A stretch of 63,529 bases of DNA, filler included, from Rhizaria sp. SCN 62-66 (Eukaryota), in the NCBI GenBank assembly GCA_001724265.1. It is 3 parts of 3 records of this genome, joined end to end, with 100 filler letters (N's around TTAATTAATTAA, not from the genome) between each part and the next. Parts side by side here need not be neighbours in the genome. Positions count along the whole stretch, not along the records: positions 1 to 27,552 come from MEDY01000403.1; positions 27,653 to 55,070 come from MEDY01000404.1; positions 55,171 to 63,529 come from MEDY01000586.1. One strand, 5' to 3'. The first letter of the stretch is position 1; each line of letters opens with the position of its first letter. Below the pieces are notes generated by a model. The model made no database searches. It had not been told where the DNA came from and saw only the letters and a program-made list of their open reading frames with translations. Positions 2,971 through 60,113 of the stretch are shown here, piece after piece. Made by a program: the position numbers and the translations under genes.

Positions 2971-5313
2971 TCACTCAGTTTTGAGCGCAGTGCCAGCGGG
3001 GGCGTCGAGGGGGATCCACCCGACGGACACGAAGAAATCCACGATCTTATCCGTCGAGTTGACGTCAATGCGCAGGAGCTGCCGCGCCTGTCCGCGCGCG
3101 ACGAACCCCTGCGCCACGCACTCGCGCAGGATCCGCTCCTTGATGACCGTGTAGTGCTGCGGTGCGAGGCGGAGCTCGGTGCACAGCGTGCGCTCGGCGG
3201 CAGACAGCAGGTCCGACCCTTCCATGAGAGAGACGTCGAAGCCGGTGATTGCGGACAGCGGCAGCGAGCCGGGCGCGGGGCCCGCCGCGGTGAGCTCGAC
3301 GTCCGCCCCCAGCAGCAGCGCCGCCGCATCGCCTGCGCCGCCACCGCTACTGGAGCCACCGCCGGTACTCGTACCGGTGGCGCCAGACCCCGCGGGGACG
3401 ATGCCATCGGCGGTGAATGCAATGCGTGCCTTCTTCGCCGCGCGGCCCCCAGCAGCAACAGCCCCCGCGGCAGCAGCAGCAACAGCAGCGGCAGCAGCAG
3501 TGGCAGCGGAGGCGTCATCAGCGTTGTCAGCGGACGAGTCTGCTACACCCGCCCCATCCGTGTCGCCGACTCCGGTACCCGCGACAGCACCCGTACCTGT
3601 GACCGCGGCAAGCGTGCTCTGCGGCAGCGGCGCGAGCGCGGCGTCTCGGGGCCCCGCCGATGGCTCGGGGCCAAGTCCCACGGCCTCGCGGCGCGCGGCG
3701 ACGGCTAACTCGCGGCGCGCACGCTCTGTCTCAAACAGAGCGCCCTCGGCCAGCGAGCGCACGCCGTTGAGCCGGTACGCCTGCAGCTGTTCGATGCGCT
3801 GCCGCAGGCGCCGCTCGTTCAGCACGCCCTGGACCAGCGCGTCGTGGTCAGCCTGCGCGTGAAAGCGCGCAAGCGGCCGCAGCGCCTGGTGGACCTCTCG
3901 TTCATCGCGGGTCCGCTTGCGCTCGCGCCGGTGCAGCAGCCCCCGCGAGATGATGAAGTCCTTGCGTTCGCGGCGCGCGTCGAGCTTCGAGTTGTACACC
4001 TCGAGCACTTTGAGCTTGAGCGCGCGCTCCCACGGCGAGTCTTGCGCGCGGAACTCCATGTCCGCGACCAGCAGCTCGGCCTCGTTCTCGTACTAAGTCT
4101 CGAAGTCGCCGCGCTGCGGCATGTAGCCCACGAGTCCCGCGAGCGAGTTCTTCTGCTTGGAGCGGAAGAGCTGCTGCTGCACGCGCCACGTCGCCTCCTC
4201 GGCCGCGCGGACCAGCTCGCGCTCGCGCTCGGCAGCCGTCGCGCCGCCCAGCGCAGCGGAGGCCGCCGCAGCCGTCGCCGCCGCAGACCCAGCAGCCGCC
4301 GCGGCCGCAGAGCCAGAGCCCAGGCCTGCAGACGCTGGGCCCGGGGTCGTGACAGGTCCATGGCCAGCGTTGGCGGAGGCCGCCGACGCAGATGAGCTGG
4401 AGCTAGAAGATGAGGAGGAGGGCGTGGCGGGGACGGAGGCCTTGGTGATCCGCCCGGTGGGGCCGCGGCCGTGGCCGTGCAGGATCGACAGCGGCGGCGG
4501 CGGCGGCGGCGCGGCGGCCAGCAACGCGGCGGCGGCGGCGGCGGCCTCGGTGGCCGCGCTCGCGTCGGGGCGCTGCGCCGCGGCGGCGAGGAACTCGGCG
4601 GCCTCGGCCGTGGCCGCGGCGGCGTTGGCGGCGGCGGCGGCGGCGTTGCTGGCGGCCTCGATCGCGCCGGCCGTGGGGAGCGGTTCTGAGCAGTCCGGCA
4701 GCGGGGCCGTGCGGGACTCCAAGTAGCAGGCCATGTAGTGCTGCTCACACTGCTGGCGCGACTTGGAGCCGACGTAGTTGGCGGCCTCAGCCCAGTTGCC
4801 GAGTCCGTACACCTCGATGGCCTCGAGCAGGAGGAGCTCTTCGTCGGCGCCCCAGTCGGGGGTGAATATGGGCGTCGTGACGTGGTGTATCAAGCGGTAC
4901 GCGTGCGTCGGCTGATGCGGCTGCACGGCGTGGCCCGCAGCGAAGCACTGCAGACAGAGGTCGAAGTCTTTGCAGACGGCGCACTTGATGTGGAGCGCGT
5001 TTGAGATGTCGACGCGGCAGTAGTCGCAGTGGTAGGTCACCTTGCGCGACGACGAAGCAGACGACGACGAAGCAGACGACGACGCGGACGATGACGATGA
5101 CGAAGAAGAGGAACTCATCGCCTTCGCCAGCGCCGACGCGGCCGACGCAGAAAGACCGGGCGCGGGCGCGGGGGCCGCGGAAGCAGAAGCAGAAACAGAA
5201 GAAGAGGAAGAGGTGGGGGACGGGGCTGCAGTGCCGGACGCGGACGACGCGGACGAGCCAGACGCCGGTGCTGCGGCATCTCCGTCGGTCATTTTGGCCG
5301 AAGAAGATGACAT
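2971..5313 (-). CDS. ADA2: Transcriptional adaptor ADA2 (ZZ zinc finger, SANT, SWIRM); single exon with in-frame TAG at 4093-4095
   Basis: YHCDYCRVDIS..IKCAVCKDFDLCLQCF (ZZ); DWGADEELLLLEAIEVYGLGNW (SANT); GYMPQRGDFET*YENEAELLVADMEF; LLSAAERTLC..IDVNSTDKIVDFFVSVGWI (SWIRM). The two track ORFs share one frame; ends TGA. Confidence 0.95.
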
Positions 5314-5891
5314 GGTCACACCTCTCTACAAAATCAGTGAGTGAAATATGCAAGGACGCGTAGTAACAGTGAAATACATGTCGTATTGGAAGCTCGGTGA
5401 GGAGGGAAGGTTGAGCCGGCCTGGGAATTGAAATTATCTGGGAGAGTATGTGTCTCATCAAAATATGTTGAGATATTATATACAGAACTTAGATGTTAAT
5501 GATATATTAAAACGTAATATCTGACAACGGTGTTTTGAAACCATACTATACAATCAAAGTTGGTCCCCATTCTTGCTATGGCGCGAAGCATCAAAGCACT
5601 AGGCTGCAGTGGGCGGTCAAGGGGTGTGTGGTTGGAAGAGGAAAGCAAGATGAATCAAGAGACAACAAGGTTTGTGTATGACACAGCACAAATATTATTC
5701 AGATGTATGTGTGTTACGAAGCTATGTAAACGCATATCCTGCCCCGGAGACGATTCCACCAACATATCCCGTCTTAAGGCACGACTATACGAAAGTGAGA
5801 GAGGTTTGCGTTGTGTTTGTTTTAGAGCAAACCGGAGGCCACCAATGAGCCAAACAAAGGCCCATTGGTTGTGCAGCGCGAGGGCGCTCGC

Positions 5892-6784
5892 TTAGTTGGC
5901 GAGCTGCGCCTCGCGCTCGCGCTCGCGTTCCAGCTCGCGCTCGCGCTCGGCCTCAGCCTCCTCCGCTTCCCTGGTTGCCTCGGCCTCCTTGGCCATGCGG
6001 ATGCCCTTGGCGACGGCCTGCTCCAGCTTCTTGCGCGTCGCCGCTTGGCTCTGGCCGGAAGTCTTGTCGACGATGTCGAACAGCGAGCGGCCCTGCAGGT
6101 CCTTGATGTGCATGTTAGCGCCGATCTTTGCGAGGTAAGTCACGACCATGAGACAGCCGTTCTCGGCCGCGAGCATTGCGGCCGTCATGCCGTTGTTGTC
6201 CTGCGCGTTGACGTTGGCGGCGCCGGAGTCATGAAGGAACTCGACGACCTTGAGGTTGTTCGACATGCCCGCGATCATGAGCGCAGAGCGCCCGTCGGCG
6301 GCCTGGAGGTCGACGTCGGCCTTGCTGGTGACGAGCGCCGAGATGATGTGGTGCGAGTTCGTGAACGCGGCCTTCATCAGCGCGGTCTGGCCAAACTTGG
6401 TCTGCGCGTTGAGGTCGGCCTCGTTCTTGAGCAGGAACTCGACGACGTCGAGATAGCCGCCGAACGAGGCGTAGATGAGCGCGGTCTGGCCGTACTTGTC
6501 GGCGAGGTTGATGTCAGCCTTGGCCTCGATCAGGTCGCGCACCTCCTCCAGCTGACCGTTGTTCGCCGCAATCATCAGCGCGGTGTTGCCAAACTACGCG
6601 GGCGGGGACGTGAGGGCATCGAGTGAGGTTCGTGTGTTGTGAGAAAGTCGGAAGAGATTGTGGGGAAGAGTGAGCTCGAGCTCTTAGTAACAAGTCAGGG
6701 TTACAAAGAGGAAATAGCAAGCGAGGGACAAATACGTACCGCATCTTGGGCGTTAATGTTCTTTTGGTTCTGCTGGCCCTCCAT
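5892..6784 (-). CDS. Ankyrin-repeat protein with C-terminal charged coiled coil; exons 6784-6740, 6593-5892
   Basis: Repeats GNTALMIAA, GQTALIYAS, GQTALMKAA, GRSALMIAG, GMTAAMLAA; splicing GTACGT..TAG restores INAQDA-FGNTAL; ends TAA. Confidence 0.9.
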
Positions 6785-7226
6785 GTTCTTCAAAAAAGCA
6801 CGATGGGCTGTGCATATAGATTGGGATCGGCAAGAAGGAGATGGCAATCGTGAGCTCAGGCAGGTTCTCAAAGGCGGACACACAGGGCTCGACAGTAAAG
6901 TTTCTAGGAAGTACCAAACAGGTGAAATATAGAAAACTTGTTAATTTTCACCGCATTACAAAGACAATTCATTATGACGTTCAGAAGGTGTCGAATTACT
7001 CGTCGAAGAAATTGGTTTGACGTAACCGCTCGAAGCTGTCGGCATTTTTCAGAACCGCGCCCGGATGCAGTGTTCCAATTTTTGAAAAAGTGTGATCTTG
7101 TCACTCCACTCGACGAGTCTTAACGACGCCAAGTCTTCGTCAAACTGTCTGCCGTTTGATTTTCCCGACTGTTTCCCTATTGTTCTGTCCTCGATTTCAA
7201 TTATACTCACCAGAGCCTCCTTATTA

Positions 7227-10200
7227 ATGTCCAATGCAGATCCCTTTTCGAACGCGCGACAGCTTGCAGACGCAGCCCACCACGCTTTTTAGTCACCTGG
7301 TGACGCTTTATCTCGTCACTCTTTGCATCATTTGATGCAAGCATCCGACGATTCCGGAGTCACTCTAACACTTTCTTTGGACCACGTCGACACAACGCGC
7401 TGTGAGCCCGGTCTTGCGTCCGTTCTGAGCTACACCCCCGCACCCCTTCCCGAGCCGGCCTTCGACGCCTACCTCACTGCGCCAACGCCCGCTTCGGCCT
7501 CCACACCCGCGTTCTCGATCTCGGCCACATCGGGTCCAGGCTCTGTTACTGCGACCGCGACCGCGACGCTCTCTCCGCGCCGCCCTGCAGACGCACCGTC
7601 TCGCGCCGCTTCAGTCTCATCCTCATCCTCAGTCGCTGGTGTTTCTGCTGCTTCTGTTGCTGCTGCTGTGGCTGACGAGCGCGACCTCTACGACACAGCC
7701 CTTGCGAGCACGCATCTCCTGGCCAAGTCCCGCTTTGCGATCCAGCGCCTGCAGCAGGAGCTCGACGCCGAACGCGCGCGCCGCCCATTAGACCGTCAGT
7801 CAGACCGCCCTTTCGACCGTCCGCTAGAGCGCCCGCTCGAACACCCGCGCTCTCCCTTCGTGCACAGCTCAGGCGCCTTCGTCTCCTCAGGACTCGAGGC
7901 CTCAAACGCAGTGCCCGCGCCCGCGCACGTGTCCGCGCCCCCGCTGCCCGACCCTATCGGCCCCCCTCCGCCGTCCCAGCCACACTACACACACGCGCAC
8001 GCACACGCACAGCTGCACTCGCAGTCACAGCGCGCTTTGCTTAACAACAGCATGCACCCCATGTACGCGAACGCATACAACCCGCACACGCATGTGCCCG
8101 GCTACGCGCGCGCCGGCCCTTTGCACGCTGCACACTACGCCATGCCCATGCCCATGGGCGTGCCGGTGCCCGTGGCGACGGCGGCCCCGTCGCACCCGGG
8201 CGTGGCGTCCCTCACGGCGGCCGCCGCGCTCGCAGCAGCAGCCTCCCGCGCCTACCCCACTGCGTCCAGCTCCAGCTCCGGCTCTAACAGCAGCAGCAGC
8301 GGCAGCGACTACAGAGCCGGTGACCGTGAACGCGACCGCGACCGTGACCCGCTGGGCGCGGGCGTGGCGGAACACATGAGTGCTGTTGACGCACGCATGC
8401 GGACCTTGCGGGAGCGCGAGCGCGAGCTCCAGAACCTTCAGGCGTCCGTCCACGGCATCGCCGCCGAAGCCTGCGGTAGTAACGGCGGGGGCAATAACGG
8501 CGGGTTCGCGCCGCCGTGCTCTGGCGCGCCAGGGGAGCCATGCGCGTGCGGCGGCGGCACCCGCCCCGGTGGCAGCGCGGCTTCGGGCCGCCTGTGCCAG
8601 CGGTCGATCCTCGCCTCGCTCGACGCCCTGCGCGTGCGCGTCGCGGCCGCAGAGGCCATGCACGTCGACCTGGTTGCCACCACCGAGGATCTGCAGCAGC
8701 GCGCGTTGGCGGCAGTTGAGGCCGCGCGCGACGCCGCGCACCGCGCGCATGAGGACGCCGCCGCGCGCGCCGCCGCCGCGGTCGACGCTGCGCGCGAGTC
8801 GGCGCGGCGCGCGCAGGAGGACGCCGAGGAGCGCGCGAGCTCGCTTGCCGCCGCCGCCGCGCGCGCCGCAGAGGACCGCGCGACCGAGGCGGCGCGCGCG
8901 CGCTTTGGCGCCGCCGACGCCCGCGCGGCGCGGGAACTGGCTGACGCAGAGGCGCGCGCCGCCAAGGAGCTGGCCGCCGTGCGCGCACGCGCGGAGGCGG
9001 CCGAGGCCGCGGCAGACGCAGCGCAGCGCGGCGGTGACGCACTGCAGCGCGCGCGCGACGCTGCCGAGGCCCGCGTCGAGGCCGCGTACGCCTCGGGCGC
9101 CGCGGCAGGCCGCGCTGAGGCCGCTGCCGCAAACGCTGCGGCCGAGGAGGCGCAACGGCGTGCCGAGAAGATAGTTGCCGACGCCACGAGCGAGAAGCAG
9201 CGCGCGCAGGCCGACGCGGCGCGCGCCCAGGAGGCCGCTGCGAGCGCCAACACGCGCGCGGACGCCGCGATCGCCGAGGCTGCGCGCGAACGCGAGGCTG
9301 CCGCGCGCGCGACGGCGCAGGCGGCGGCGCAGTCCGAGTCCGCGCGGGCGCGGGCGACTGAGGACACGGACAAGGCGCGCGCGGAGGCGCTCGTGGCCGC
9401 GGAGCGCGCGCGCGCGGAGGCCGCCGACACGGCCGCCAAGGCCAAGGCCGCCGCAACTGAGGCCATCGAACGCGCGCGCGCCGAAGCGGCCGACGCGAGC
9501 GAGAAGGCACGCGCGCTGGCGAGCGAGGCGTCGTCGCGCGCACAGGCGCAGGCTGCCGAGGCCATTGCGCGCGCCGACGTGCAGAGCGCCCGTGCAGAGG
9601 ACGCGTCGCGGCAGCTCGCCGCACTGCAGGCCGACCTTGCCGCAGCGCGCGAGCAGACGCGCTCGCTGGACGCGCGCGTCGACGAGCTGCGGCGCGAGGC
9701 CGCGCAGTCCGCGGCGGCCGCGGCCGCGGCGACGGCGGCGCAGGCCAAGGACGCCGTGACTGCCGCGGCGGCGCTGAACAAGGACCTCGCCGCGGCGGCT
9801 GCGATGCACTGCAAGGACGCCAGCGCGCTGCAGGCGGCGCACAGTAAGGATATCGCCGCCGCGGAGGCCGCGCACGAGCGCGCGCTGCAGGCCGCCGAGG
9901 CCGCCGCCGCGCGCGAGGCCGCCGCGATCGGCGCGGCGCACGCGCGCGAGCTGGCAGCGGCGCGCGACGACGCCGCGGCCGCGCGCACGGAGACCACGGC
10001 TGCGCGCGCAGAGGCCAGCGCGGCCCGCGACGAAGCCGCGGCGGCGCGGCTCGAGCTCGCGGCCGCGCAGAGCCGGCTGGCCACCGCGCAAGCCGCGGCC
10101 GCGGCTGCGGAGGCGCGCAGTGACGCGGCGCAGCGCGCGCTTGACGAGGCGCGCACGGGCCTGGTTGAGGCGTTGCGCGCGCAGACCGAGGCGACTGGGT

Positions 10201-15281: not shown

Positions 15282-15316
<35 letters not shown>

Positions 15317-16442
15317 GTCGTCGTCGTCGTACTCGTCGCGCCCGTCTGCGTCGTACTCGTCCTATTCCAACCCGAACAGCCAGTACGGCGGCGGCTACTC
15401 CTCCACTATCCCCTCGCAGCCCATCACCGCCACCACCAACGCGGCCGCGAGCCTCTCCGCGCGCGCGCAGGTCGCCGCGCTGCTGATGCTCGCCGCGCTC
15501 CCGCTCGTCTACATCTTTCCCCTCACCCCGCCCGCGACCGCGAGCTCTGTCTACACCGCGACGTGCCTCATCTCGGCCGCATACGCCGTGTGGCGCGCGT
15601 TTGCGGCCCACGGCAAGCCCAGCGCCGACCCGGCCTACATCCAGCGCGTGCTGCCCGACCCGCACGTTGCGTGGCTCTTCTGGGCGCTGCTGGCTTTCTC
15701 CGCGACCCCCAACATCGTCGCACTCGCCCCGCTCGCCGTCCGCGCCTGGGCGTTCGCCCGCCCCTACGCCGCGGCCTTCCTCCCCGCCGCCGTCGCGGGC
15801 TCCGCGGTGCTGGCCGCCATGGCGCCCGACTCGACCGGCGCGCTGGCGCTGCTGACGGCGCGCCTGGAGCAGTTCGCGCTCTACTTTGGCATCGTCGCGC
15901 TCTTCACGCCGCTGCGCTCCATCGCGTTCGTGGTGGTCGCCTGGACCATGGTCCGCATGCGGTACATCATCGACCCGGCCGTGCAGCGCGCGTTCGCAGA
16001 GGCGCAGAGCAACGTGTGGGAGCCCGCCGTGGCGCGCGCGCCTGCGCCCGTGCAGAAGGGCTACCGCTGGGTCGCTGAGAAGATGTACAGGTACGTGCGA
16101 CAAACCACACTGACAAACTGTCGTTGAACTCTTATTTGAACTTTCGTTTGCGATGTGATGGTGCGAAATGCGTTTGTGATTTGACTCTATAAATGATTTT
16201 GTGGATTGAAACGTGCACAAGTATGATTTGACACATGTTATCTTGCGAGTACTGTACTTTCTCTGCTCAACTCCCTCAATGTCATTTTCGCGTCGATCTC
16301 ATTTACTCCTTCTTTTCTTTGCTCTCTATTGTTTTGCTGTCTGTTGCTTAGCTTCGTTGACCCCGTTGCGCTGGAGCAGCAGGCGCGCGAGGCCCAGGCC
16401 AAGGGTGCCAGCGGCGCCGGCGGCGGCTGCACCGTCATGTAA
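14910..16442 (+). CDS. TMEM33/Pom33-like ER/nuclear pore membrane protein; exons 14910-14973, 15097-16090, 16352-16442
   Basis: N-terminal FKSYDWASDEAW..KRQRKYYKENINPDY, hydrophobic core ending WTMVRMRY..VQRAF typical of the family; C-terminus CTVM-TAA. Confidence 0.7.
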
Positions 16443-17030
16443 GTGATCACACAGTCAGTCAGTGCAGTGCATTTTCAACTGTGGCTTGACACTGCATCAC
16501 AGTAGTGACGATTGTTAACTGCGTTTATTAATTATAAATTTGTTCCGTTCTCAGAGAGTGAAAATGTGTTATTTCATGAATTCATACTGTAAAAATAGAA
16601 TAAACAAAGAGGTATTTAGCAAAAGGAATCAATGCCACTCGAAATGTGAAAGGAAGGGATTGTTTGTATTGAGTGATGGCTCTATAAACGACTGCAAGAT
16701 CCACACGTAAAGGGTTTGAAACTTGTGGATACGTAAATATCACGATCTATGTAGTTATAATCATAATGGAATTTGCTGCACCAACAACGACTCGTCGCTG
16801 TTGCCGAGCTGTTGGTTTGTTCGTTAGCTTGGTTTGAGCTTGGTTTGCGCTGTTGTTGTAAAAGGCACCACACATGGACTCATAGTCAATGCGTGTGCAC
16901 GTGATCACAGACTGCGAGCTGCAAACTGCTCCAGCTTCGATTTCTGGGTGCGCGTGGTGGAGGAGACAAAGAAGTAGCGGCGCAGCGCTTGTTTATCGAA
17001 GCGTCGCCGTCGCAGGGTCGCGTCGCAGGC

Positions 17031-40629: not shown

Positions 40630-40689
<60 letters not shown>

Positions 40690-45516: not shown

Positions 45517-45598
45517 GTGTCGATAGATAAGTGGTTTAAATCGTTAGATTCAGGTTCTAATGTCTCCGGACGCGCGGGTTCGAACCCCGTTCGACACA
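45517..45598 (+). tRNA. tRNA-Leu(CAG)
   Basis: Acceptor GTGTCGA/TCGACAC, TTAGA-TTCAGGT-TCTAA, long variable arm, oligo-T downstream. Confidence 0.95.
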
Positions 45599-46329
45599 TT
45601 CTCTTTTTTTTGCCCCTTCCAGACCTTCCCGACATTTAATCATTCGCCGGGAGAATTCTACTTTCTTTTTTGCATCTTTTTGCATGCTGTCACCGCTTCG
45701 TTCCTGTTGACAAATTGCAGCGTCAGCGAGCCATCATCAGTGCGACTGGCTAACAACAACTTGATCAAGGGTACAGTACGCAAAAAGTTATTAACTGAAA
45801 TAACTGTTAAATAGCTGATAGTATGCACTGGGCAACCTCCGTAGGCAGCATGAACCGCATGTACACCGCAGCGCTGCTTCGTTGCTATGCCCAATATGTG
45901 CTCCAAAGTAGAGGCCACTGGCCGATGGATTCAACTTGTATAATACAGCTGCGAGTGTCGTTTACTCGAGTCACTATGACGACTTTTAACTAGTCCTGCG
46001 TAGTGTCACTCTTCGGCCCAACTAAGTGCAGCATGACGGCAACATCATCGGAGTCATAAAGAAGTCACAACTTGAACAAAAAAGTGATCGTGGCATAAAA
46101 CGTGATCTATTAATATTCAAATATGAAAGAAAAGTCGAGAGCGCGAAAACTCCCAGAGAAAGACTCTGTCGTGTTACAATGTCACAATCAGCAGTAATGT
46201 GTTGTAGGCCAGAGGAATTCTCATGGATACTAATACTATTGCAGCAACCTCATTGAATTGTCAATCATCAATATTAATATAAAATATTTTTGCTTCAAGT
46301 ACAAGTCAAGTAGAACTGACAACAGTACA

Positions 46330-46402
46330 GTGGCTTTAGCTCAGATGGTAGAGTATGCGCTTAGCATGCGCGGGGCAGGGGGATCAATGCCCCCAAGCTA
46401 CA
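46330..46402 (+). tRNA. tRNA-Ala(AGC)
   Basis: Acceptor GTGGCTT/AAGCTAC with G3:U70, TGCGC-TTAGCAT-GCGCG, eukaryotic Ala-type T-loop ATCAATG. Confidence 0.93.
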
Positions 46403-46782
46403 CACTTCTTTTGCACTTTTTTTGCCTCATCGCGCAGTTGCGACTCCACTTGATTCGTGCGCTCAGCTGGAACGAAGCGTGATTTTTTTTGCTTGGCACC
46501 GCACAAGCACTATTGTTTTGCAACAGGAAAAGATCTTAATAATCCCGTTTTGCGCGTTCAAAAAGTTAGGGTTGGTTGGTTGACCATGTCTGTGCATGTG
46601 TCAACTTCATGTCGCTGCAGCAAGCGCGAATGGACTCTGCCACAGGTGTGTCGTTAAAATTGAGTGATTGACAAAAATTCATGTTACAAGATACGTGTAT
46701 GGGTGTAGGTGGAGAGGATCAAGACAAAAAAAAAAAAATCCGACGCGCACGCGTTGGTATTAGAAAGGGCGGCAAAAAGAAA

Positions 46783-46854
46783 TGTACAGGTCGGGGTTTG
46801 AACCCGAGGCCCCTTCGTTGCGAACGAAGTACTCTACCGCTGAGCTACATGCAC
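46783..46854 (-). tRNA. tRNA-Ala(CGC)
   Basis: Acceptor GTGCATG/CCTGTAC (G3:U70, one mismatch), CTTCG-TTCGCAA-CGAAG, T-loop TTCAAAC. Confidence 0.9.
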
Positions 46855-49474
46855 AACATTACTTGATGTTCGGATGTCAGAAATTTTATTTACTTAATTC
46901 TTAAAACAGGCAGGCAGGCGAGATACTGGTCAATAGTAATGTTTCAAGTGTAAAAGCGATATCAGCATCACTTGAAGCATTTCCATAAACATATCCAAGA
47001 GCTTGCGTAGTTGAACTAATTAGCTCTGTTTGAGATAGAGGTTGATAACACTGCGTCACAAGTCATTGAGGCTCCTGTGACGGCAGCGAGTCATAACGCC
47101 TCTGAGCTGAGAGCGATGCGGTCAGACGAAATAAAACCGTCAGTGGCCATGCCCAGGTGGCGTCTAGCATTAATAACATAAACAAGTTGTGATATTGATA
47201 AGTCTGCAAGCTTACTTGTCTTTGCGCCTGTCAGCGGGAACGACGGCGTTCAAAATCATCTTGACCAGCTGTGAAACGCGTTACCTCAGCGAGAAGACGA
47301 AACATTTGGTATTCTTGATCAATTCTGAGTTATTGTATCATTGGGGATAGCAAAAAATGACTGTATTATCGAAGAACGAGTATAATTGAGCACGATTCGT
47401 AATCGCAAGCTCGATCAGGAAGAACTTGAACTTGAAGTGTGCTTGAAATTTTCTAACTGTCGATGTGAGACGAAAGCTGCGTCGATGAGATGGGGGCAAG
47501 AGTCAAGATCTATACGTTTTATCTCATGTGTCTTGATGATGCACCACTTGCAGATTTTGCAACTTGACTCGTGAAGCAAGGCAACACGAACAGAATCGCC
47601 AAATGTATGTCATGCAATGAAAAAAAATTAATCTATAAGTGCTTAAGCTCTGAGACAAAGAGACGTAAAACATGAGTTATATTAAACATAGCATATCATA
47701 TGCTTAATTTTCACAATCTGAGAGTCCGGTTATCTTTGTTGTTATCGGCTCTGAAGATGATCTTGGTACGACTGCGGCACGATCGAGCCTCCAGACAATT
47801 CTGTAAATCGTGAAAAGTAGGCAAAATAGAACGAAACGTTGGTAAAATTAATGTAGTCAATACTTACTGTAAAACTATACAAGATATCAAATTGTTGTCT
47901 TGTTTGACTTACATTGGCCTTGAAAACACATCAAACGTCCTAGGCGTGGGATTATTAATATTGGGGGATTTTAGGGATAAAAATGACTATTATTGTGCAT
48001 TTGACATCAGAACCTGCGCAATTTGAGCCTGAATAATAGCCCACAGCATAAAAACACAAATATCTTTTTGTGCTTTAGTATATTTTATAGCAGCCAACAT
48101 AAGCGTGATATATCAACTCAAATGTTCCTAATGTTCCTATTACGCCTGAAAAGTATTTGAAAATTTATTACATTGGAGCGGTACATTCCTGGATCTCAGA
48201 GAAAGCCAAAAGTTATTGTAGTATGTTGTTATACAATTAATCAAATATGTATGCCTTTTATAATCGATTTACACTCCTTATACAGGCAACTGAGTATGTT
48301 TTAAAGCAGTTGTAAGGATTGTTTTTCGTTACTACTGTTGTCTTTCTGGATATTCCCGACTTTACCGTGATTCATCTCAAGGAAAAAACACATGAGTTTA
48401 AATTTGTATGGGTATATAAATGTGTAAATAGTTAAAAAAATATCGTATTGACATATTGTTGATCTTGACACAAAGCTTAAAGACTATATGGGCTCGAGTT
48501 TCTTATGAAGTGTCAGTCGAATATCAAACAGAAGTACGACACAAACCCTACATTTTCAGAGGGATATAATCGTACAGTACATGTACATTCTTTTAAAAAT
48601 GCTTACACAGACATCTACGCGCTACAATAATAACCGCATAATGACAGTACTGTCCACATTCCTGGTGACTGCGGCAATCACTTGATCGGGTCGTCGCCGC
48701 TACTTTGGTTTAAGGCACTGTGTGCAACATCAAAATGCAAGTGGGTGATCTGTGTCGGTCGCAAACAGAAACAGCACATATAAGACCTAGCAGGAATTTG
48801 CACGTACGAGGCCTTTTAGTTGCGATCGAAACACTCTACCATTACACAGCCACTCGTGATCGCACTTTCACTATGTCACCTACAGTCTCACTTGAAGAGC
48901 ATCAATAACGACAACATAACTTGAAGTTATATCTTCAGCCGCCTAAAAAGCAGACTACATGACCTGAGGTGCAACAATCTCACGTTTACTTGTTGTAATC
49001 GACTGTTGGATGCGCTTACATGCGCTTACAAAGATGTATGAGTATGATATGATAAGCTAACAAACATAATATCATTATTTGGCATTCCGTCTCTTTCATT
49101 TACATGTTTCAGAAGACTCTTATGAGTGTCAATATTGGAAGACAGCGCGCTGCTTGCAGAGCTTCCTGAGACTTTAGCCGATGCTGCCACTAGCGCGACT
49201 GATGCGCGACTGATGCGCGCTAGGATGCTTGTGACAGTCGAGGCAGTGCCGCGGACGCAATCGTGGCTGTCCTGACATCTGCGAAGCCGCAAAGACTGCA
49301 CTCGGACACAAAGAGTGGAACAGAGGAGGTAGCACAGGTGGGGGCGGAGTGCAGCGGAGCGGGGTTGGACCGCGGCAGAGCGCGAACAGCGACTGAGTGT
49401 CAGGCAGCGCCAACGGGAGCAAAATGAAAGCGCACGGGGCCTAAAGGCGCCAAGGAGGCCGAATATAAAAAAAA

Positions 49475-49547
49475 TAGTCCTACTGGGGGTCGAACCCAGG
49501 ACCATTGGCTTATTAGACCAATGCTCATACCACTGAGCTATAGAACT
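49475..49547 (-). tRNA. tRNA-Ile(AAT)
   Basis: Inverted identical copy of 43526-43598. Confidence 0.95.
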
Positions 49548-49681
49548 GTTCACTTGTTTCTTAAGAACTTGTAAGAGACTTCAGAATGTTCACTTGCTAG
49601 AGCACGCTTGTTACGCTTGTTCTTGCTTGCGACTGGTGACATCATAGTAGGGATGAATGGAAAGGGCAAAAAAAAAGAGAA

Positions 49682-49763
49682 TGTGTCGAACGGGGTTCGA
49701 ACCCGCGCGTCCGGAGACATTAGAACCTGAATCTAACGATTTAAACCACTTATCTATCGACAC
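49682..49763 (-). tRNA. tRNA-Leu(CAG)
   Basis: Inverted identical copy of 45517-45598. Confidence 0.95.
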
Positions 49764-50955
49764 TTTGAAGCGACTTCTTGTTCCTGAAACCTGAATTTAA
49801 AATATTTTAATTTGTTAAAGAATACACAAAATTAAGCTTATCTCTTTATATATGTTGATTTACGTTGGTTATAATGAGAAACTAGTATTTTTACGCTTGT
49901 TTTCATACTTAACAAAACTTTTTTATCGAAACAAGGACTCTCTTCAAAGGAATCCAGTAGTCAGTCAGCTGGGGCTGGATGACTGCAGACTGAAACAACA
50001 TGTTACCAAGGATATATTTTTGAAATCATTATAGATAGATCTGAAATGTGCAATAAATGTAGAAACATGCATATTCGAACTGGTTTCAGCGCGATACTTG
50101 CATTTGCAGCAGTTATGTAAGGAAAAATCACATAAAGATTATAATGTTGTAGTCTCGCTGACACCGCCGGCAACGAAGATCAAGTGGTCTACAAGATGCT
50201 TGATTAATTCGCAAAAGTGTCAAATCACTTTTTGCGTCAAGAGACCCGCTTCAACTCAAAAGCGCTTTCATAAGACCAACTTGCACTAGTCGAAACCTGA
50301 CCTATCCTATTAATACTGTACACTGTAGTACTAAAAAGTACTACTACTAGTAGTAGTACTGAGTACAAGTACCAGTACAGTACTGTACGTTGTACGTACG
50401 TGTCACTGTTCGATCAAGTTGCGCTCACTTGTGTCATGAGTGGATTTGGAGTCTGTCTTGCTGCTTCACCATCATCATGAGTGTCGCCACCAGGGTCCTA
50501 CTACTTTAGTATTAATAGTATTCATGGACAGTACTTGCTGTAACAAGACTCCAGTCGAGATGTTGCAGCTGCTCCTGCCTCTGGTCGAGCTAGAACTGGA
50601 GCAATTGCTCATGCTGCTGCCATTGCTGGTGTTGCTGCTTTGAGAATTGATTGAGTGTGTTGGCCTCTTCAAATACGCTCGCTCTTGCACGGTTTTAAGA
50701 ATGATGAGGCTGTGATTGTGCCTACCGCTTCGACAGCTGCGGCGGAGTATGATCGCGATTTCAAGATGCGAGAAAGTGCGAGTGCTGACAGCGTATCTGT
50801 TGCGTGGTGTAGATGATATCAGCGATTGAGACACATCGCAACATACGCGTGATGTGTGAGGAAGCATCGCGACTATCACCAAAAAAGAAATGTGTGTAAG
50901 CTCCACCTCCTGCGGTTGTGCGAAGGCCGCTATGGGCGCAAAAAAAAAAGAAGAA

Positions 50956-51037
50956 TGTGTCGAACGGGGTTCGAACCCGCGCGTCCGGAGACATTAGAAC
51001 CTGAATCTAACGATTTAAACCACTTATCTATCGACAC
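50956..51037 (-). tRNA. tRNA-Leu(CAG)
   Basis: Third identical copy. Confidence 0.95.
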
Positions 51038-51937
51038 TACTGATGCTTTTTAAGCACTTCGTGGGGTTTCGACCCGGATTTTAGCTATAGAAACAATTAA
51101 TTTTACAAACTTTAACAGGATATATCTCGGCAATAATACAGCTGTTGAATGTTTTTACTTTATTTTTACATTTAAAAAAAGGATTTATTTGTTATATCTT
51201 TGAATTGACTTAAAAAAATCACATCTTAAAGATGTATAGACAAGTGAAACCAAGAGAGAACACCAACTTTTGTGAAACACTATTTTTTACGTTTATCTCA
51301 AAAATATTCACCGAGAGTAACTTGTTTAATGTAGGTAACTCACATTAACAATGTATGTTACAATGAATATTTAAGTTTGATGTGATATCCATAAGATCCA
51401 ATTGCACAGTGATCTTATAATCATCATAAATGTCACTCGTAACAAACGTGCAAGTTGATGTTAAAGACATCAGTGCGCCTTGAATATGGAGTTAATAACG
51501 CAAATAACATCCAATTCAGACAATTTTGACGCTTGTAAAAACAACCTGCTCCCAAATGTGACTCGACTTAGATTTTATACTGCCGAGAACAGCTCTCGTA
51601 GGAGAACTCACCCAATCATGACCGCATTGCTGCCAGTCTCAACGGTGAATTTTGACATGGATTCGTCGCTTGAATGATCACCAGAATCAAGACGCGCACT
51701 AAAATCATCAAGATCAGGTTTGGTTTTGTTGATCTAAAGTCAGTTCATGTTGTTACGCAGCCGTTGCGTCAACTAGGCATGTGAGTCCGAAATAACACAG
51801 CACTTTTGACGAGGATAAGCATACGTATGAATCAGTTTAACGCAAAAAGATATCAAGAACATTTAGCAGTAGCAAAATGCACGAAGCAGGTGGAGGCGCG
51901 ATTGCGCGAAGAGGCAAAAAAAGTGCAAAAAGAAGTG

Positions 51938-52010
51938 TGTAGCTTGGGGGCATTGATCCCCCTGCCCCGCGCATGCTAAGCGCATACTCTACCATCTGAG
52001 CTAAAGCCAC
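51938..52010 (-). tRNA. tRNA-Ala(AGC)
   Basis: Inverted identical copy of 46330-46402 with homologous flanks. Confidence 0.93.
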
Positions 52011-52452: not shown

Positions 52453-55070
52453 TTACCAACCACGCTTGACAGCAACCCGCGGAGCCTCAGCTTCGGTCGG
52501 CGGAGCCCGGTTGGACGAAGTATTCGCGGGTGGGGGCGCCACAGCCTCAGTCTCACGCACACGCACACCTGCGCCACTGTCGTTGCCGCTGCTGTTGTCA
52601 CCATCATTGTTGTGATCCTGGTCCTCCTCGGCCGCGGCTGCCGCGGCAGCCTGGTGGTCGGCGAGCGTCTCGACCAGCGCGGCCGTGGCGTAGACCTGCT
52701 TCTCCACGCCTTCGAGCACGCGGCGCTGCGCACGCGCAGCGTCCTTGGCCGCCGCAGCCGCCGCCTCGACTTTGTCGCCGCGCGCGTTAAGCGCCGCCGT
52801 GAAGGCCGCGTCGGCGTCGCCGGCCTTGCGCTCGTACAGCTGGACGGCCGCGGCCACGGTGTCGAGCAGCGAGACCGCGGCGGCGCGCTCGCGGTCAAAC
52901 GCCTCCGCAAAGCGCACGACTTCACGGCGGCGCGCGGCGACAAGCTCCAGCGCGGCGGCCAGCTCATCGCGCTTGGCGTCAGCCGCGGCTACGGCGGCGC
53001 GCAGCTCGGCCGCGAGCTCGGCCGCGCGCGGGGACAGCGCCGCCAGCGCGGCGACGGACCCGCTGCTGCTGACGCTGGGCGCAACCGCGGCGGCGGCGGC
53101 GGCGGCGGCGCTGACTCCGGTCTGCTCGCTCTGGTCCACGGGCTGCTGCTGCAGCTGCTGCTGGCGCGCGGCCTCGGCGGCCTCAGCGGCGGCGAGCACC
53201 TTGTCCACGAGCACGTCGACGTCGTAGCGGTCGCGCAGCTGCGCCAGGCGCCGCGTGCGCTCGCCCGCGACGGACTCGAGCGCAGTCCGCTCGGCTGCAG
53301 CGGCCAGCAGCAGCGCGCCCGCGTCCGTCTCCCTCTTGCTCTGCTGGCTCCCGCTCGCCGCAGCCGAACTCGACTTCGCTGTCGCCGTCGCAGCCGCCGC
53401 GCCACTGCCGCTGCCGCTGCCGCTGCCAGTCGCGGCCGAGGAGGCGACGGCGGGCGGCGCGCCGGCGATGGTGGCGATGGCGGCCTCGAGCGCGTGCAGC
53501 CGCGTCTTGGCGGCGCCGACAGTTGCCACGAGCTCCCTGGTCTCGCCGCTCAGCGCCCGCAACAGCCCGCCCTGCTCGCCACCGCCACCGCCCACAGCAG
53601 CGGCCTCGGAGGAGAGGATGGCGCGCTGCACGCGCGGCGGCAGCGCGGCGAAGTCGCCTGCGAACCGCGGCAGCGCGTCTGCGCCCGTCGTGTGCACCGT
53701 GGGGGAGAACTCCAGCAGCGTCTGCGCGCTGGGCCCGCTGCGCGCAGACGCCGCCGACGCAGCAGCAGCAGGCGCAGTCGCGGCGGCGGTGGACTCGGCG
53801 CTGGAGCCGCCGGCGAAGCGGATGAGGCTCAGGAGCTTGCGGAGAGCGCCGCCCTTGCTCTTGCTGCCGTCACGCGCGGCGGCGGCGGCCGCAGCGGCGG
53901 CGCTGGCAGCAGCGGCGGCGGCGGACGCGGCAGACGCAGCGGCGGCGGCGGCCGCGACAGGATGCGCGTGCGCGTCGGCGTGGTCGTTGAGGTTGTCAAT
54001 GTGGCTCGCCCCACTGCCAGTGGCAGCGTTGCCGCTAGAGCCGGAGCCTGCACCGCTACTCTTGCCGCTGCCGCTGCCGGTCTGCGCGGGCACCTTCTTC
54101 GCAGCCTCGCTCGCGGCTGCGGCGGCCGCGGCGGAGACGCCGGCGGCCGCGTCCGGCGACGGCAACGCAGGCCGCGCGCGCCACGAGTTGTCCGAGAACG
54201 TGAACGCGAAGTGGCACTCCTCGGGCGCGTGCACAGTCCCAGTCGCAGTCCCGGCAGGAGCCCCGGCCGCGGCGCTCTTGCTCTTGCCGGTGCCGGTGGT
54301 GTCGGCATTGTTGGCGGCGGTCGCCGGGTCAGCCAAGTGCGCGTGAGGCAGGTTCGTGCTCTCGGCCGCCGTCCCCGCGCCGCCCGTGCCTGAAGCAGCC
54401 GCAGCCGGAGCTAGACCTGAGGCTGAGGATAAGGTCGGGGCGACGGGGGTGCCAACGTCAGGGATGGGGCCCAGAGGCGTCGCGTTATGCATGTTCATCC
54501 CTGCAGCGCCGACAGCAGCGGCGGTGGCGGCGGCGGCAGCGGCGGCGCCCTCATGCGGCGGGGGCACCGCGGGGACGGTGTGGAGCGCGGTGTAGAGCAG
54601 CGACTGCTGCTGGTGCTGCGCCGAGTAAGGGTGCGCGGCGGGCACGGCGGCTGTACGCGACCACGACATGCCCTGCTCCTTGATGATCTCGAGCTTGCGC
54701 TCGTGGCTCAGCGCCGAGTACGTCAGATAGTCGTCCTCGGCGGCGGCGGCCGCGGCGGCGTCAGCGGCCTCGTACACGTCGAGCGCGGCCTCGACCGCGG
54801 CGGCCTCGCCGGCTTCGGCCTCAGCCGACAGCACCGCCGCCGCCGCAGCGTCTGCCTCGGCCGCTGCGCTCGCCGCCGCGCGCGCCGCCGCCAGCGCCGC
54901 GCCCTGCGCCGCCTCCTCGCCCGCAACGCCCGCATCCGCGCCCGCGTCCGCGCTGACGTCGGCCTCTGCAATGTCGGCGTCGGGGTCGATGTCGATGTCC
55001 ACGTCCCCATCGCCATCGTCGACGTACACCGGGTGACCGGGCGGCGCGCGCGGTGCCCCGGCGCGGCGCG
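52453..55070 (-). CDS. 3' part of a large Ala-rich coiled-coil protein (5' end lost in gap; may continue the 57143 gene)
   Basis: >850-codon open frame from the gap to TAA at 52453. Confidence 0.75.
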
Positions 55071-55170
55071 NNNNNNNNNNNNNNNNNNNNNNNNNNNNNN
55101 NNNNNNNNNNNNNNTTAATTAATTAANNNNNNNNNNNNNNNNNNNNNNNNNNNNNNNNNNNNNNNNNNNN
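55071..55170. other. Assembly gap with artificial six-frame stop linker
   Basis: 100-nt block of Ns with TTAATTAATTAA at 55115-55126. Confidence 0.95.
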
Positions 55171-56359
55171 GCCGCGGCCACGGCCGCCGCGTAGGCCCGC
55201 GCGCGCGCCGCCTCGGCCCGGAGCGCCACGCCCAGACGCGTGCGCCGCGCGCGGGCCAGCGCGGCGGCCGCGGCCAGGAGCCGGCGAGCACGGGCCAGGA
55301 AGGCGTGCACCTGGCCGGGTGCAACGGTCAGCAGCAGCAGCGCGGGCGACAGCGACCCGCCGGGCGTGGGCGCGGGCGCGGGCGCTGGGGCAAAGCTGTT
55401 ATAGCTATGTTGCTGGTGCGCTTGTTGTTGCTGGGGGTCCTGAGCGAGCGCGGCCTCCGCGTCCGCGGCCGCGGCGGCGACGGCCCTAGCGTCGGCGGCC
55501 CGGAGCGTTCCTGCGCCGGCGCGCTCGCGCTCCAGCGTGTCGGCCAGCGCGGCCAGGTGGGACTGCAGCCGCGCGCCGTGCCGCAGCAGCGCGGCCGCGG
55601 TCGCCGCGGCGGCGCGCAGCGAGCCCGTGTAGAGCGGCACCAGGCGGCGCAGCGACGGCGGGAACGACGACTGCGACGACTGCAAAGATTGTGAGTGTGA
55701 AGACTGTAGCTATGACTGTGAGCACGGGCGGGAGCAGCGGGGGCAGCAGCAGGCAAGCGAAGAAACAGCGTTGTTGCTGCTGCTGTTGTTGTTGTTGTTG
55801 TTATTGTTGTTGTTGTTGTTGTTGTTGTTGCAATCACGCTTTGCAGTGGCAGCAGTCGTGGCAGCCTCTTCTTCTTCGGCCTCTAAAAAGGCCCGCAGCA
55901 ACCGCCGCTGGTCGCGCCGCTGCTGTTGCCGCTGACCGAGAGTCTGACCGTCAGCGTCGATATGAGCGAGACTAATGCCGTCGTCATCGTCACTACCTTT
56001 GTCGTCGCCACTATCGTCGGCGTTTTCGTCATAGTAAGCTCGGATGCTGTGACTAACATTCGCGTTCACATAGAAACTCAACGAACACCCCTCACACACA
56101 ACGACAATATTGTGACTCCCATGACTGTCGGCGCCCCTCTCGCCGACGTCGCCCGCAGCCCCCGCGGCCGCGTGTTCCCGCCACGCCCACTCGCGCGCGA
56201 GCCGGCCCAGCCGCGCGGCCTCGGCGGCGCACGGCGCGAGCCCCAGTGCGCGCAGGCGCCCCGCGAGCGCGGCGACGCGGCCGGCCACGGCGCCCAGCGC
56301 GGCAGCCAGCGCGCTCGAGTGCGCCAGCGAGACGGCCGCCGCGCGCTGCAGCGCCACGC

Positions 56360-56406
<47 letters not shown>

Positions 56407-57143
56407 CCGCGCAGCAGCCGCGACAGCGACGGCGACGGTGGCAGCAACGGCGAGAACTCGGACATGTGCGGAGACGTGTACGGGGACACGGAGCGGTGTA
56501 CGGCTGAGCTGGGGCGGGAAGGCCTGTTCGCGTTGCGTCCATGACCGTTGTAGCCGCTGTCGTAGCTGTCGTTGTACGCCTGTGTGGCGCTATTATTGCT
56601 GTTGCTGTATTGGGCGTTGCCAGCGCTTTTAATGTAGAGCTTCGGCTGTGAGTATGCCGTGTTGTCTCGGCTGCTGATGCTCATGCTGACGCTCCCGCTG
56701 CCACTCTGGGCCTTGAAGGCGCGCTCCTCGAGCCGGGCGATGAGACTGCGGTCGGCGGCCTGGGCGGCGCGCGCGCTGCTGCTGCTAGCGCCGCTATAGC
56801 CCTTGCCGCTCGCTGCCCTGGCATCACTGGTGCCCGCGTTGAGCGCCGTGGCCGCCGTGGCCGCCATGTAGGCCGCGGGCCCGCGCTGCGTGAGCGAGCG
56901 CGCGTGGCCGCGCAACGGCACCGGCCCGCGCGCGCCCAGCACCGTGTGGTAGTGCCCGTCGTTGCGGGTGCCTGGCGCGAGCGGCTGCTGGCGGCCGGGG
57001 GCGGCGCTGGCGGGGCGTACTGCAGTGAACGCGGCGGCGGATGCAGAAGTGAGGGGCGCCGACCAGTCTGCGGGCACGGGCGCTGGCGCGGGACCGCGGG
57101 GCGCGGAGAAGCCGGGGCCGCCTGGGCCCGGACGCGCGGACAT
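55171..57143 (-). CDS. 5' part of a low-complexity protein of unknown function; in-frame TAG at 55710-55712
   Basis: Track ORFs 55710-57143 and 55119-55685 share one frame separated only by TAG; open into the gap. Confidence 0.7.
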
Positions 57144-57644
57144 AGGCGCAGATAGCGGCGGTCAAAGTTTGCAAAGTATCGCTTAAGAACTGCGACGATT
57201 GCTGCGTGTGCCAGACTGCGTTGCGGTGTAAGGAAGGAGACAGTAAGTCGAGCGGAAACGGCCCGTGAGATAAGAGCAAAAATACATCCATAGACGGACT
57301 TTAATCGAAAAGCAAAAACAATAATAGAATTAAAATAGCTGCACATGTCATACGATCAGTGAAATTCCCCGTTGACGGACTCCTCACTTCGCTGGCCACA
57401 CTAACACGAGTTGAAACACAGCTTAGAAGTGGCGCAACGAAGACCAGCAACGGCTCCAATGCAACGCACAAACGTATGTGTGACTATAACTGGTTGTTTT
57501 GTATGATGTAGAACATATCAACACAACAAACTAACGTAAAAATCGATGTTACATATCACATACCAAAATTTAACAAAATACTTTGACATAACAGTAAACA
57601 AAATCCTTCTTCTTGACAGACTAGGCACTGCTCGCGCTTTTGCC

Positions 57645-58664
57645 TTAGGCGTTCTTGGCCTTGCTGGCGCCGGGCATGGTGAGCGTGAAATACTTCATGT
57701 CGCCGAGCGGGCGCGGCGACACGGCGGCCTTGATGGCGAAGGCGAGCGCGAACACGATGCACACGATGCCGACGATGATATAAGCCCAGCCCAGGAAGGT
57801 GTTGCGGCCGCCGACCCAGGTCAGCGTCGACAGCACCACGCTCTTGGTCCCGTCGTAGCTCGCCGAGTCGAACGCGTTGTCGACGGTGACGGTGAGCTTG
57901 GAGCCCTTGGGCAGCGAGCGGTCGATGACGGCGTAGAGCTTGCGGAAGGTCGACAGCGAGGCCGTGCGCATCCACACCATGAGGTGCTGGTCGTTGAGGT
58001 ACGGCAGCTGGCCGCGCGGGCCGTCGCGCGTCAGCGACGACGGCAGCGGCGTCGGCGGCAGGTACAGGTCCTTGAACTTGACGTCGATGTCCGAGGCCCA
58101 GGCGATGTTGGTCTCGTCCCAGTTGCTGTCGGCGAGCGGCACTGCGGGCGCCAGCGTGCCGTCGTCCTGCATGAGCTCCACCTCGGCAGTGAACTTGTCG
58201 TTGAAGAAGGAGTTGGCGACAAGCCCGCAGGGGTAGAGCGTCTTGCCGTCCCAGTTCTCCAGCGGGTCGCAGCTCGAGCTGGCGCTGCCCTCGCCCGAGA
58301 GCTGCTCGTCGGAGCGCGACTTGACGTACCGGCGGTGGTTTTGGAAGAAGTTAGTGAGCTTGTAGTAGAAGTACACGGGTCCCTCCATCTTGTCCTCGAT
58401 GTCGAGCGTGACGGAGCACGTCGCCGCGGAGCCGCAAACGGCGTCGTAGCGCTGCTCGACCTCGACGACGTCGCCCGAGGCGGCCAGCACAGCGGCGCCG
58501 ATGGGGATGAAGGCGATGCCGATGATGAGGAACGTCAAGATGACCCACTTGGGAGTCAGAATCGGCTGCCACGCGCGCAGGCGCTGTTGGCGGAAGTCCG
58601 TGTCCTCGGGCTTCGTGCGCTCGCTGTCGCGCGCCGCGTCGGCGCCGGCGGCAGGGTCAGACAT
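57645..58664 (-). CDS. CDC50: CDC50/LEM3 family flippase beta subunit
   Basis: FRQQRLRAWQPILTP, YYKLTNFFQNHRRYVKSRSDEQL, YPCGLVANSFFND, HLMVWMRTA, WVGGRNTFLG; ends TAA. Confidence 0.96.
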   Translation of the reverse strand: MSDPAAGADAARDSERTKPEDTDFRQQRLRAWQPILTPKWVILTFLIIGIAFIPIGAAVLAASGDVVEVEQRYDAVCGSAATCSVTLDIEDKMEGPVYFYYKLTNFFQNHRRYVKSRSDEQLSGEGSASSSCDPLENWDGKTLYPCGLVANSFFNDKFTAEVELMQDDGTLAPAVPLADSNWDETNIAWASDIDVKFKDLYLPPTPLPSSLTRDGPRGQLPYLNDQHLMVWMRTASLSTFRKLYAVIDRSLPKGSKLTVTVDNAFDSASYDGTKSVVLSTLTWVGGRNTFLGWAYIIVGIVCIVFALAFAIKAAVSPRPLGDMKYFTLTMPGASKAKNA

Positions 58665-59538
58665 GATCGCAGCGGAGCAGAGTTAAGTGTTGTTTGAGAC
58701 TGGAGGGGTGCGCTCACAGACGTGGAGGCAAGAGTGGAGTTTGCTTGTTTAGGAGATTAAAAAGAAAAGGTGGTCTATGCTTAGACACGAGCGTGGTGGT
58801 ATTGTTGATGTTGAGGGGTCAGAGTGCGAATGAAGATATCGGACGCAATACAAACAACGAAAGTTTTGTTGTTCGCGGTGGGCAGTGAGAGAGTGAAAAA
58901 GAAAGGGAAGAAAGGGTTTAGTGAGATGAGGGTTGATATTGGAGAGGAGAAACATGTAGAGCGTAAATAAACTATAGATGTCGCATGTAATGAGAGTGGT
59001 CACAGTGTCGAGCAGAGAGAGTGGCGCGAGTGAGAAGCTGTCGAAAGAGGGGGAACGTTGGGCTAGCGAGAAGCGAGTCATTCGAGTGCTCAAACACAAT
59101 TGCAGAGGACCGAAACGTCCGTCAAGCAAGAAGAAACAAACACCACGCAAAACTATACTGTGCCTCATAGCTTATATATAGCGGCGGAGAAAAATAGAGC
59201 CTCATATGATGCCTGCCAGATGTGTTTAGGTCGACTCGACGACGCTCTGACCGAGACCCAGTCGCCGCTGGAGAGGAAAGTAAGCCGCACCTGGCGAAGG
59301 CCCGTTACCTTGAATATCTCAATATATAAGTTATATTTACAAATTCTATAAGTACCTCAGCGTAGTTCCTCTTTGCTAAAATATCATACTCCGGTTTTAC
59401 TTCTTAAGTCCCTTGTTTGAGTGTGTATTATCGCCTCCCCGCGCCGACGCCGCAGCCCGTTCTCTGCTGCGCTTCCTACATCGCCTTCATACCGCTGCCA
59501 CAGCGCGCTGCGCCTCGCCAGCGCCCCTATTAGACCCC

Positions 59539-60113
59539 ATGTCGCGCGTGACCGCAGCCTCCAAGCTGCAGCCTTATACCGCGCCTTCGTGGCATCCCGT
59601 CCGCGCGTCCAGCCCGTCTGGAGCCTCCCGTGACTGCCACCACAAACAGCTTTTGCGAGCTGAAAACGCACAGCAGGTCAAGGCTGATCTGGAGCAAAAC
59701 GCGAGTGAGAGCGCGTGTGTGAGTGTAATGCACCGCGGACAGATCATCCTGGCGCCCAGCGCTGTGGCCAGCATCGCCGCACTAATTTCCGACGCCCTGG
59801 TACGTCCATCACCCGGTATATCCGTCCTGCAATCGACTTGGATCCATCATCATGACTCCTCACTCCTTCCCTTCTGTGTGTTTCGCTGTGCAAGGAGACG
59901 CGCGAGGAGCCGGGCGCGCTGGCGACGGCGGGGCCCAAATTCTCTGCCGCCGCCGCCTCGGCCGCCGCGGACGCGACGGGCGCCGACGTCGTGGTGTTCC
60001 TGAGCGAGGAGGAGGCGGAGGCTGTGCTCGACGAAATGCCACCGCCGACGGGGAACTGGAAATAGATCAGGGAGAGCCTCACAGCTTTCTTGGCCAAGAT
60101 TAGGCAAACTTAA
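59539..60113 (+). CDS. Small hypothetical protein; exons ~59539-59799, 59895-60113; in-frame TAG at 60063-60065; start uncertain
   Basis: GTACGT..AAG phase-0 intron; exon 2 reads ETREEPG..VVVFLSEEEAEAVLDEMPPPTGNWK*IRESLTAFLAKIRQT-TAA. Confidence 0.55.

Follow-up and report, generated by a model that had tools for sequence, protein, structure and literature searches.

UAA and UAG nearly always change their meaning together, and the few lineages in which the two codons have become uncoupled are test cases for the capture of a stop codon. Among the closest described cases is the rhizarian exLh (Sainouroidea), for which UAG is reported to encode Leu, with genes ending in UAA (56) or UGA (15) (PMC5304391). 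A UAG read as Gln, with UAA as a stop, is described for Iotanema spirale (PMC5304391) and for Hartmannula sinica, Trochilia petrani and Protocruzia tuzeti (PMC11687900), and the latter report lists, for phyllopharyngean ciliates, changes of UAG alone to Leu once and to Gln twice. For the green alga Scotinosphaera, UAG is given as Ser and UAA as a stop (cited in PMC11687900). The oligohymenophorean ciliate PL0344 is reported to read UAG as Glu and UAA as Lys and to use UGA as its sole stop (PMC10553269, PMC11687900). Finally, codes in which the context decides between stop and sense have been described for Condylostoma, Parduczia, karyorelicts and Blastocrithidia (bioRxiv 10.1101/2022.04.12.488043; PMC12153298). 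In the present study we analysed a stretch of DNA from Rhizaria sp. SCN 62-66 (GenBank assembly GCA_001724265.1; 63,529 nucleotides including filler, in the following called the window) that contains five in-frame TAG codons. This organism is likely to translate UAG as an amino acid, whereas UAA and UGA have retained their function as stops.

The comparison with the described codes, as far as the reports mentioned above present them, reveals both similarities and differences. As in exLh, UAG would be the only reassigned codon, the terminators are UAA and UGA (13 and 5 gene ends in the window), and the organism may also be rhizarian. However, 71 genes of exLh are reported to contain 384 UAG, about five in each, located in conserved Leu columns, whereas UAG is rare in the window and the aligned columns hold Glu in one case and Pro, Gly or Ala in the other. 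With the species reading UAG as Gln, the window would share a UAG that alone is sense and UAA as the preferred stop, and Gln is compatible with our data. These species (a fornicate and several ciliates) nevertheless belong to other lineages, and the conserved Glu column fits Gln less well. The meaning Glu is possibly shared with PL0344, but in the window UAA serves as the stop in 13 of 18 genes. Scotinosphaera also represents a change of UAG alone outside the ciliates, although amino acid and lineage differ. The context-dependent codes likewise translate a stop codon inside genes, but there the same codon ends genes, while none of 18 genes ends in TAG in the window.

In the articles that we searched, no UAG change is reported for another rhizarian, for Rhogostoma, for a wastewater protist or for an activated-sludge eukaryote. 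Reassignment of UAG alone is already known from several lineages; UAG as Glu together with UAA and UGA as stops would, if true, be a novel variant. To our knowledge, this combination is present in no NCBI table.

TAG codons within ADA2 and a small two-exon gene

A first-pass annotation, made from the sequence alone, had listed five in-frame TAGs, and all five are present at the coordinates and in the frames that it gave (sites 1 to 5, Table 1). It had also described each of them as flanked by coding sequence of a gene. This could be confirmed for sites 1 and 5; it is probable for site 3 and plausible for site 4, whereas site 2 could not be confirmed as coding.

Site 1 lies in the gene for ADA2. 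If the TAG is read as X, the protein comprises 780 residues, and the ZZ, Myb/SANT, third and SWIRM domains are all present. The match to PF22941 (E 4.4e-26) runs across the TAG, and the SWIRM domain downstream of it is intact. The flanks of the TAG pair gap-free with 13 homologs (..GDFET-X-YENEAE..) and leave exactly one column for the TAG, so that no intron is possible at this position. In this column Glu is found in 13 of 13 aligned homologs, and Glu is also present in P0023, a relative with 62% identity. We regard the TAG in ADA2 as a proven internal codon.

The consequences of the standard code for this gene can be seen in existing records, since gene callers have split ADA2 into a 315-residue fragment ending in ..GDFET, found on 5 ENA contigs, and C-terminal fragments on 1 and 3 contigs. 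Gene calling with the standard code thus already breaks up genes of this organism, ADA2 being recorded in two pieces, and eukaryotic metagenome bins of this kind will be annotated incorrectly as long as the code is not specified. A scan of metagenomes with ADA2 detected just two contigs (1.3-1.4 kb) with 100% identity over residues 1-281, neither of which reaches the TAG.

Site 5 is located in a small gene, for which Pfam contains no family match. We searched 1.84 billion representative proteins by phmmer with a query made of exon 2 and the 15 codons that separate the TAG from the following TAA, the TAG being translated as Q. Three of the 4 matches obtained are small proteins (E 1.2e-7 to 1.2e-4); their alignments extend from query position 10 to 71 or from 15 to 70 and thereby include the TAG, which is position 57. 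The remaining match, a repeat protein, is limited to query positions 7-52. Downstream of the TAG there are five invariant columns (R59, A64, F65, L66 and R70), and two of the three homologs end in the same column as the window's TAA, while the third is one residue longer. When the 15-residue tail behind the TAG was shuffled, 0 of 5000 shuffles reached the observed score against P0028, and the same was true for P0029; for P0031 the value was p = 0.015. The two other frames of this tail do not match the homologs. P0154, which belongs to the same cluster as P0028 but is longer, is collinear across the modelled exon junction. Site 5 had at first been taken for a true TAG terminator, as GC content and coding potential drop behind it, and this was overturned by the homologs. 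Since they are conserved across the TAG, we regard it as proven that this triplet lies within the coding sequence and that TAA terminates the gene. The TAG column itself is variable (P, G or A).

Further TAG sites and independent samples

At site 3, the TAG would belong to the N-terminal region of a protein with a CAP domain. The PF00188 match reaches the end of the profile (117/117), and the CAP domain forms the end of the reading frame that contains the TAG. The surrounding sequence is GC-rich, and between 18279 and 18759 the coding potential of the TAG frame is positive in 17 of 17 windows, while 33 of the 34 windows in the remaining two frames are negative. Four ATGs are present upstream of the TAG (18282-18450), and the next in-frame ATG follows 300 codons downstream. 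The sole donor-like site upstream (GTACGG, 18560) would lead to a stop 16 codons past the junction. It is probable that this TAG is an internal codon.

For site 4 an internal codon is plausible. The sequence is rich in S, Q and C and of low complexity, and the coding potential dips at the TAG; behind it, 179 coding-like codons without an ATG follow. No frame-compatible canonical donor was found upstream of this site. The end of the protein cannot be read because of a pair of N-runs at 55071-55170. Such a pair also occurs at 27553-27652, each consisting of two runs of 44 N separated by 12 bases. The second pair lies between the open reading frames 52453-55122 (-) and 55119-57161 (-); these possibly belong to a single gene.

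Site 2 is located in sequence of 47-57% GC with weak coding potential, at the 5' end of a coiled-coil gene. The start context was derived from five confident starts (C at -1; A, C or G at -3), and both candidate ATGs at site 2 (7227 and 7335) lack it.

Logan contigs of four sequencing runs were compared with the window, among them X3, a DNA run from another study, and X5, a run of polyA RNA; this comparison took in sites 1-3. Contigs of X3 covering 3425-4453, 6713-8376 and 16752-18993 do not show a single difference to the window and keep the TAG at sites 1, 2 and 3. Site 1 is covered by X3 record 1 (3425-4453), site 2 by X3 record 3 and X4 record 10, and site 3 by X3 record 7 and X4 record 15, in each case with 0 differences. 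No alternative letter is listed at any TAG in the four runs, an X5 contig across a TAG not having been demonstrated. All of the listed read joints can be attributed to cross-mapping within GC-rich repeats of low complexity and reveal no intron or RNA end; stretches without RNA cover carry no meaning.

Downstream of the TAG in ADA2, two variants were found in X4 (3739 and 4063), both at third codon positions. A contig from X5 differs from the window at 20 of 157 bases between 4801 and 4957, and 17 of these differences are at third codon positions. Since the variants in X4 and X5 mostly affect third positions, ADA2 is under purifying selection. The X5 contig represents a related lineage with a constrained ADA2 from the same kind of habitat.

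Gene ends, the possible amino acid and rival explanations

As already indicated by the first-pass annotation, internal TAA or TGA codons are absent: there is none in 11,125 curated codons. It had also counted 17 gene ends (12 TAA, 5 TGA, no TAG); the lack of TAG ends holds, and the number is now 18 with terminal exons modelled, comprising 13 TAA and 5 TGA. That TAA is a genuine stop is underlined by its position behind the conserved C-termini of TRM112 (LNESEL) and PSS (RIPKP) and behind the CaaX box (CTVM) of TMEM33; the end of PPK2 (..DKYV, followed by TAA after an intron) was checked as well. Within the 150 nt behind the 18 stops, TAG accounts for 29 of 131 stop triplets. The proposed reading of UAG as sense with UAA and UGA as stops is favored by the two TAGs flanked by homology, by the missing TAG ends and by the unchanged TAGs in an independent assembly. 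An uncultured, GC-rich and intron-poor protist from wastewater or bioreactors would accordingly decode UAG as an amino acid in its nuclear genes, with termination at UAA and UGA only. UAG would then be read by a tRNA with the anticodon CUA encoded outside the window, and eRF1, the gene of which is not in the window either, would have a lost or weakened recognition of UAG.

Several points weigh against this reading or limit its support. The chance of finding no TAG among 18 gene ends is P = 0.018 if 20% of the genes used TAG, and P = 0.15 at 10%. In Guttulinopsis, a sainouroid with the standard code, all but one available transcript is reported to end in UAA (PMC5304391), so that the missing TAG terminators are weak when taken alone and constitute a supportive line. 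Among the 8 tRNA genes of the window, none has a CUA anticodon. Two of the five sites are proven and two are probable, counting the plausible site 4 among the latter, and the amino acid is informed by one column. Site 2 may be part of a 5' untranslated region (UTR). The coding potential at all sites was calculated with a training set containing one misframed segment and 6 stray in-frame stops.

With 3 to 5 occurrences in some 11,100 codons UAG is infrequent, the gene sample is small, and no cognate tRNA was found in the window. This would agree with a UAG that is a stop in principle, under a standard or a dual code, and is read through at particular sites, either in a programmed manner or depending on the context as in Condylostoma and the karyorelicts. 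However, this would be needed in two to four of about 20 genes and within essential domains, and a dual code predicts TAG ends, none of which was found in 18 genes. We therefore consider readthrough improbable. Ordinary nonsense mutations in decaying genes under the standard code have to be considered too, since the GC3-rich codon usage favors TAG. The first-pass annotation had objected that mutations of this kind would not be expected to produce only TAG; this does not hold, as 69-73% of the single-base nonsense changes in the codon usage of the 11,125 codons give TAG, and one change from GAG to TAG is enough at ADA2. Yet two to four knocked-out genes in about 20 would then be present without any frameshift and without any TAA or TGA, the frames behind the TAGs are conserved, identical TAGs occur in assemblies of other studies and years, and the two X4 variants behind the TAG of ADA2 both lie at third positions. 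This explanation appears very improbable to us.

It is also conceivable that the ribosome does not encounter UAG at these sites, because the TAGs are acceptor ends of introns, belong to UTRs or are edited in the mRNA. Other TAGs of the window are indeed explained in this way: an in-frame TAG forms the acceptor of the ANK intron (6594-6596), another lies in the TBP intron (1177-1179), and several are found in 5' UTRs (that of ADA2 at 5326, and those in front of PPK2, DUF383 and g30097). TAG moreover terminates 4 of the 8 introns whose 3' end could be read, namely those of ANK (GCGTAG), TMEM33 (GCTTAG), PPK2 (GTTTAG) and g13569 (TATAG), and the acceptor-like CGCTTTTTAG is present at site 2. In contrast, sites 1 and 5 each occupy one column amid conserved residues and leave no room for an intron. 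Furthermore, every modelled intron begins with GTACG (TBP, ANK, TMEM33, g13569, PPK2, two in TRM112 and the small gene), and the 400 nt that precede each of sites 1 to 4 contain no frame-compatible donor, the only candidate, which is found at site 3, running into a stop. An intron acceptor was thus ruled out at sites 1, 3, 4 and 5 and is conceivable at site 2. Editing is compatible with the data; the RNA run X5 lists no other letter at the TAGs, its cover of the exact bases not being demonstrated. Of the three rival explanations, we regard this one as the least probable.

If UAG is a sense codon, the amino acid would most likely be Glu, to which we would assign roughly an even chance on the basis of the one informative column; Gln would be about half as probable, and so would all other residues together. 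The change from GAG to TAG at ADA2 is a single step, which would be silent if UAG means Glu. Neither of the two aligned columns (Glu in 13 of 13; P, G or A) suggests Leu or Ser. We tentatively propose, while considering it somewhat less than an even prospect, that the organism possesses a nuclear code not yet described, with UAG as Glu and UAA and UGA as stops, in a possibly cercozoan wastewater protist and independent of exLh. Since UAG is still rare, the reassignment may be young. This would be an apparently independent further case in which the codon is still rare, possibly at an early stage after capture.

Introns, organism and other genes of the window

The features discussed here are summarized in Table 1. 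The 5' splice site of the introns is nearly invariant (GTACGT), with GTACGA in PPK2, and many introns are located close to where their gene begins or ends.

Table 1. Positions of TAG sites, genes, tRNA genes and intron 5' sites along the window
Feature	Position	Strand	Remarks
Site 1, in-frame TAG in ADA2	4093-4095	-	Residue 407 of 780, within TADA2A-like third domain
ADA2 gene (ZZ, Myb/SANT, third domain, SWIRM)	2971-5313	-	ATG 5313; stop TGA 2971-2973
Site 2, TAG in 5' UTR or N-terminal codon	7290-7292	+	5' end of 1,500-codon coiled-coil gene
Site 3, probable in-frame TAG in N-terminal region of CAP-domain protein	18666-18668	+	Coding potential continuous; no nearby downstream ATG
CAP/SCP-domain gene	18282-22169	+	CAP domain C-terminal; stop TGA 22167-22169
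Site 4, plausible in-frame TAG in low-complexity protein	55710-55712	-	Coding potential resumes 15 codons behind TAG
Site 5, in-frame TAG in small gene	60063-60065	+	16 codons ahead of true TAA; homologs P0028, P0029 and P0031 align across
Small two-exon gene	59539-60113	+	Exon 1 59539-59799; intron 59800-59894 (GTACGT..CAAG); exon 2 59895-60110; TAA 60111-60113
tRNA genes (n=8)	43526-52010	both	Ile-AAT (2), Leu-CAG (3), Ala-AGC (2), Ala-CGC
Intron 5' sites	1078, 6739(-), 13619(-), 14370(-), 14974, 16091, ~23432(-), 35492, 35869, 37836, 59800, 60580		14370(-), 14974, 37836 and 60580 are donor-motif matches only

The window consists of eukaryotic nuclear DNA with a GC content of 60-77% in genes and a lower one in non-coding DNA. 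At third codon positions GC rises up to 0.8-0.95, and introns are few and short. The Pfam families identified comprise TBP, ADA2, an ankyrin protein, TMEM33/Pom33, a CDP-alcohol phosphatidyltransferase, the CAP-domain protein, PPK2, an HGH1-like protein (DUF383/384), CDC50 and an EH/EF-hand protein; several open reading frames, like the small gene at site 5, have no family match in Pfam. The same DNA was found in metagenomes from bioreactors, wastewater and activated sludge, belonging to 7 studies.

With regard to the origin of this DNA, the top homologs of ADA2 share 65% and 56% identity and are followed by oomycetes with 52-54%, and the top homologs of CDC50 share 70%, 60% and 59%. Organism names were looked up for three CDC50 matches, which are from Lapot gusevi (53%), Ploeotia vitrea (50%) and Mataza sp. 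(50%). Two of these three, Lapot and Mataza, are cercozoans. A rhizarian affinity of the organism may be read from these protein comparisons, as a lead rather than a result. A profile scan of genome contigs with the CDC50 alignment detected only one relative with 33% identity, in a bacterial metagenome-assembled genome, and none in viral contigs, and searching the Atlas with CDC50 yielded no taxonomic information of use.

The 8 tRNA genes are spread over roughly 9 kb of AT-rich DNA (GC 0.41-0.50) and form partly inverted duplicate sets. The genes for Ile-AAT and Ala-AGC each occur on the plus and on the minus strand, those for Leu-CAG once on the plus and twice on the minus strand, and there is one gene for Ala-CGC.

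Among the other genes, the one at 23131-25366 (-) encodes a eukaryotic polyphosphate kinase 2 (PPK2; PF03976, E 5.6e-98) with an N-terminal extension of about 450 residues that is rich in lysine and aspartate, and an intron lies near its 3' end. In TBP (229-2445), the two repeats are separated by an alanine-rich insert of about 170 residues; the protein also has a tail of some 110 residues, and its gene contains a single intron (1078-1263). In the gene for the TMEM33/Pom33-like protein, a short last exon (16350-16442) encodes the CaaX box followed by TAA; a C-terminal CaaX box is unusual in the TMEM33/Pom33 family. Finally, the CDC50 of a relative (P0034) and the homolog of the small gene designated P0029 both originate from an NCBI contig for which a length of 4681 bases is listed. 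Probably the two lie on one and the same contig, in which case CDC50 and the small gene (57645-60113 in the window) would adjoin in the relative, too.

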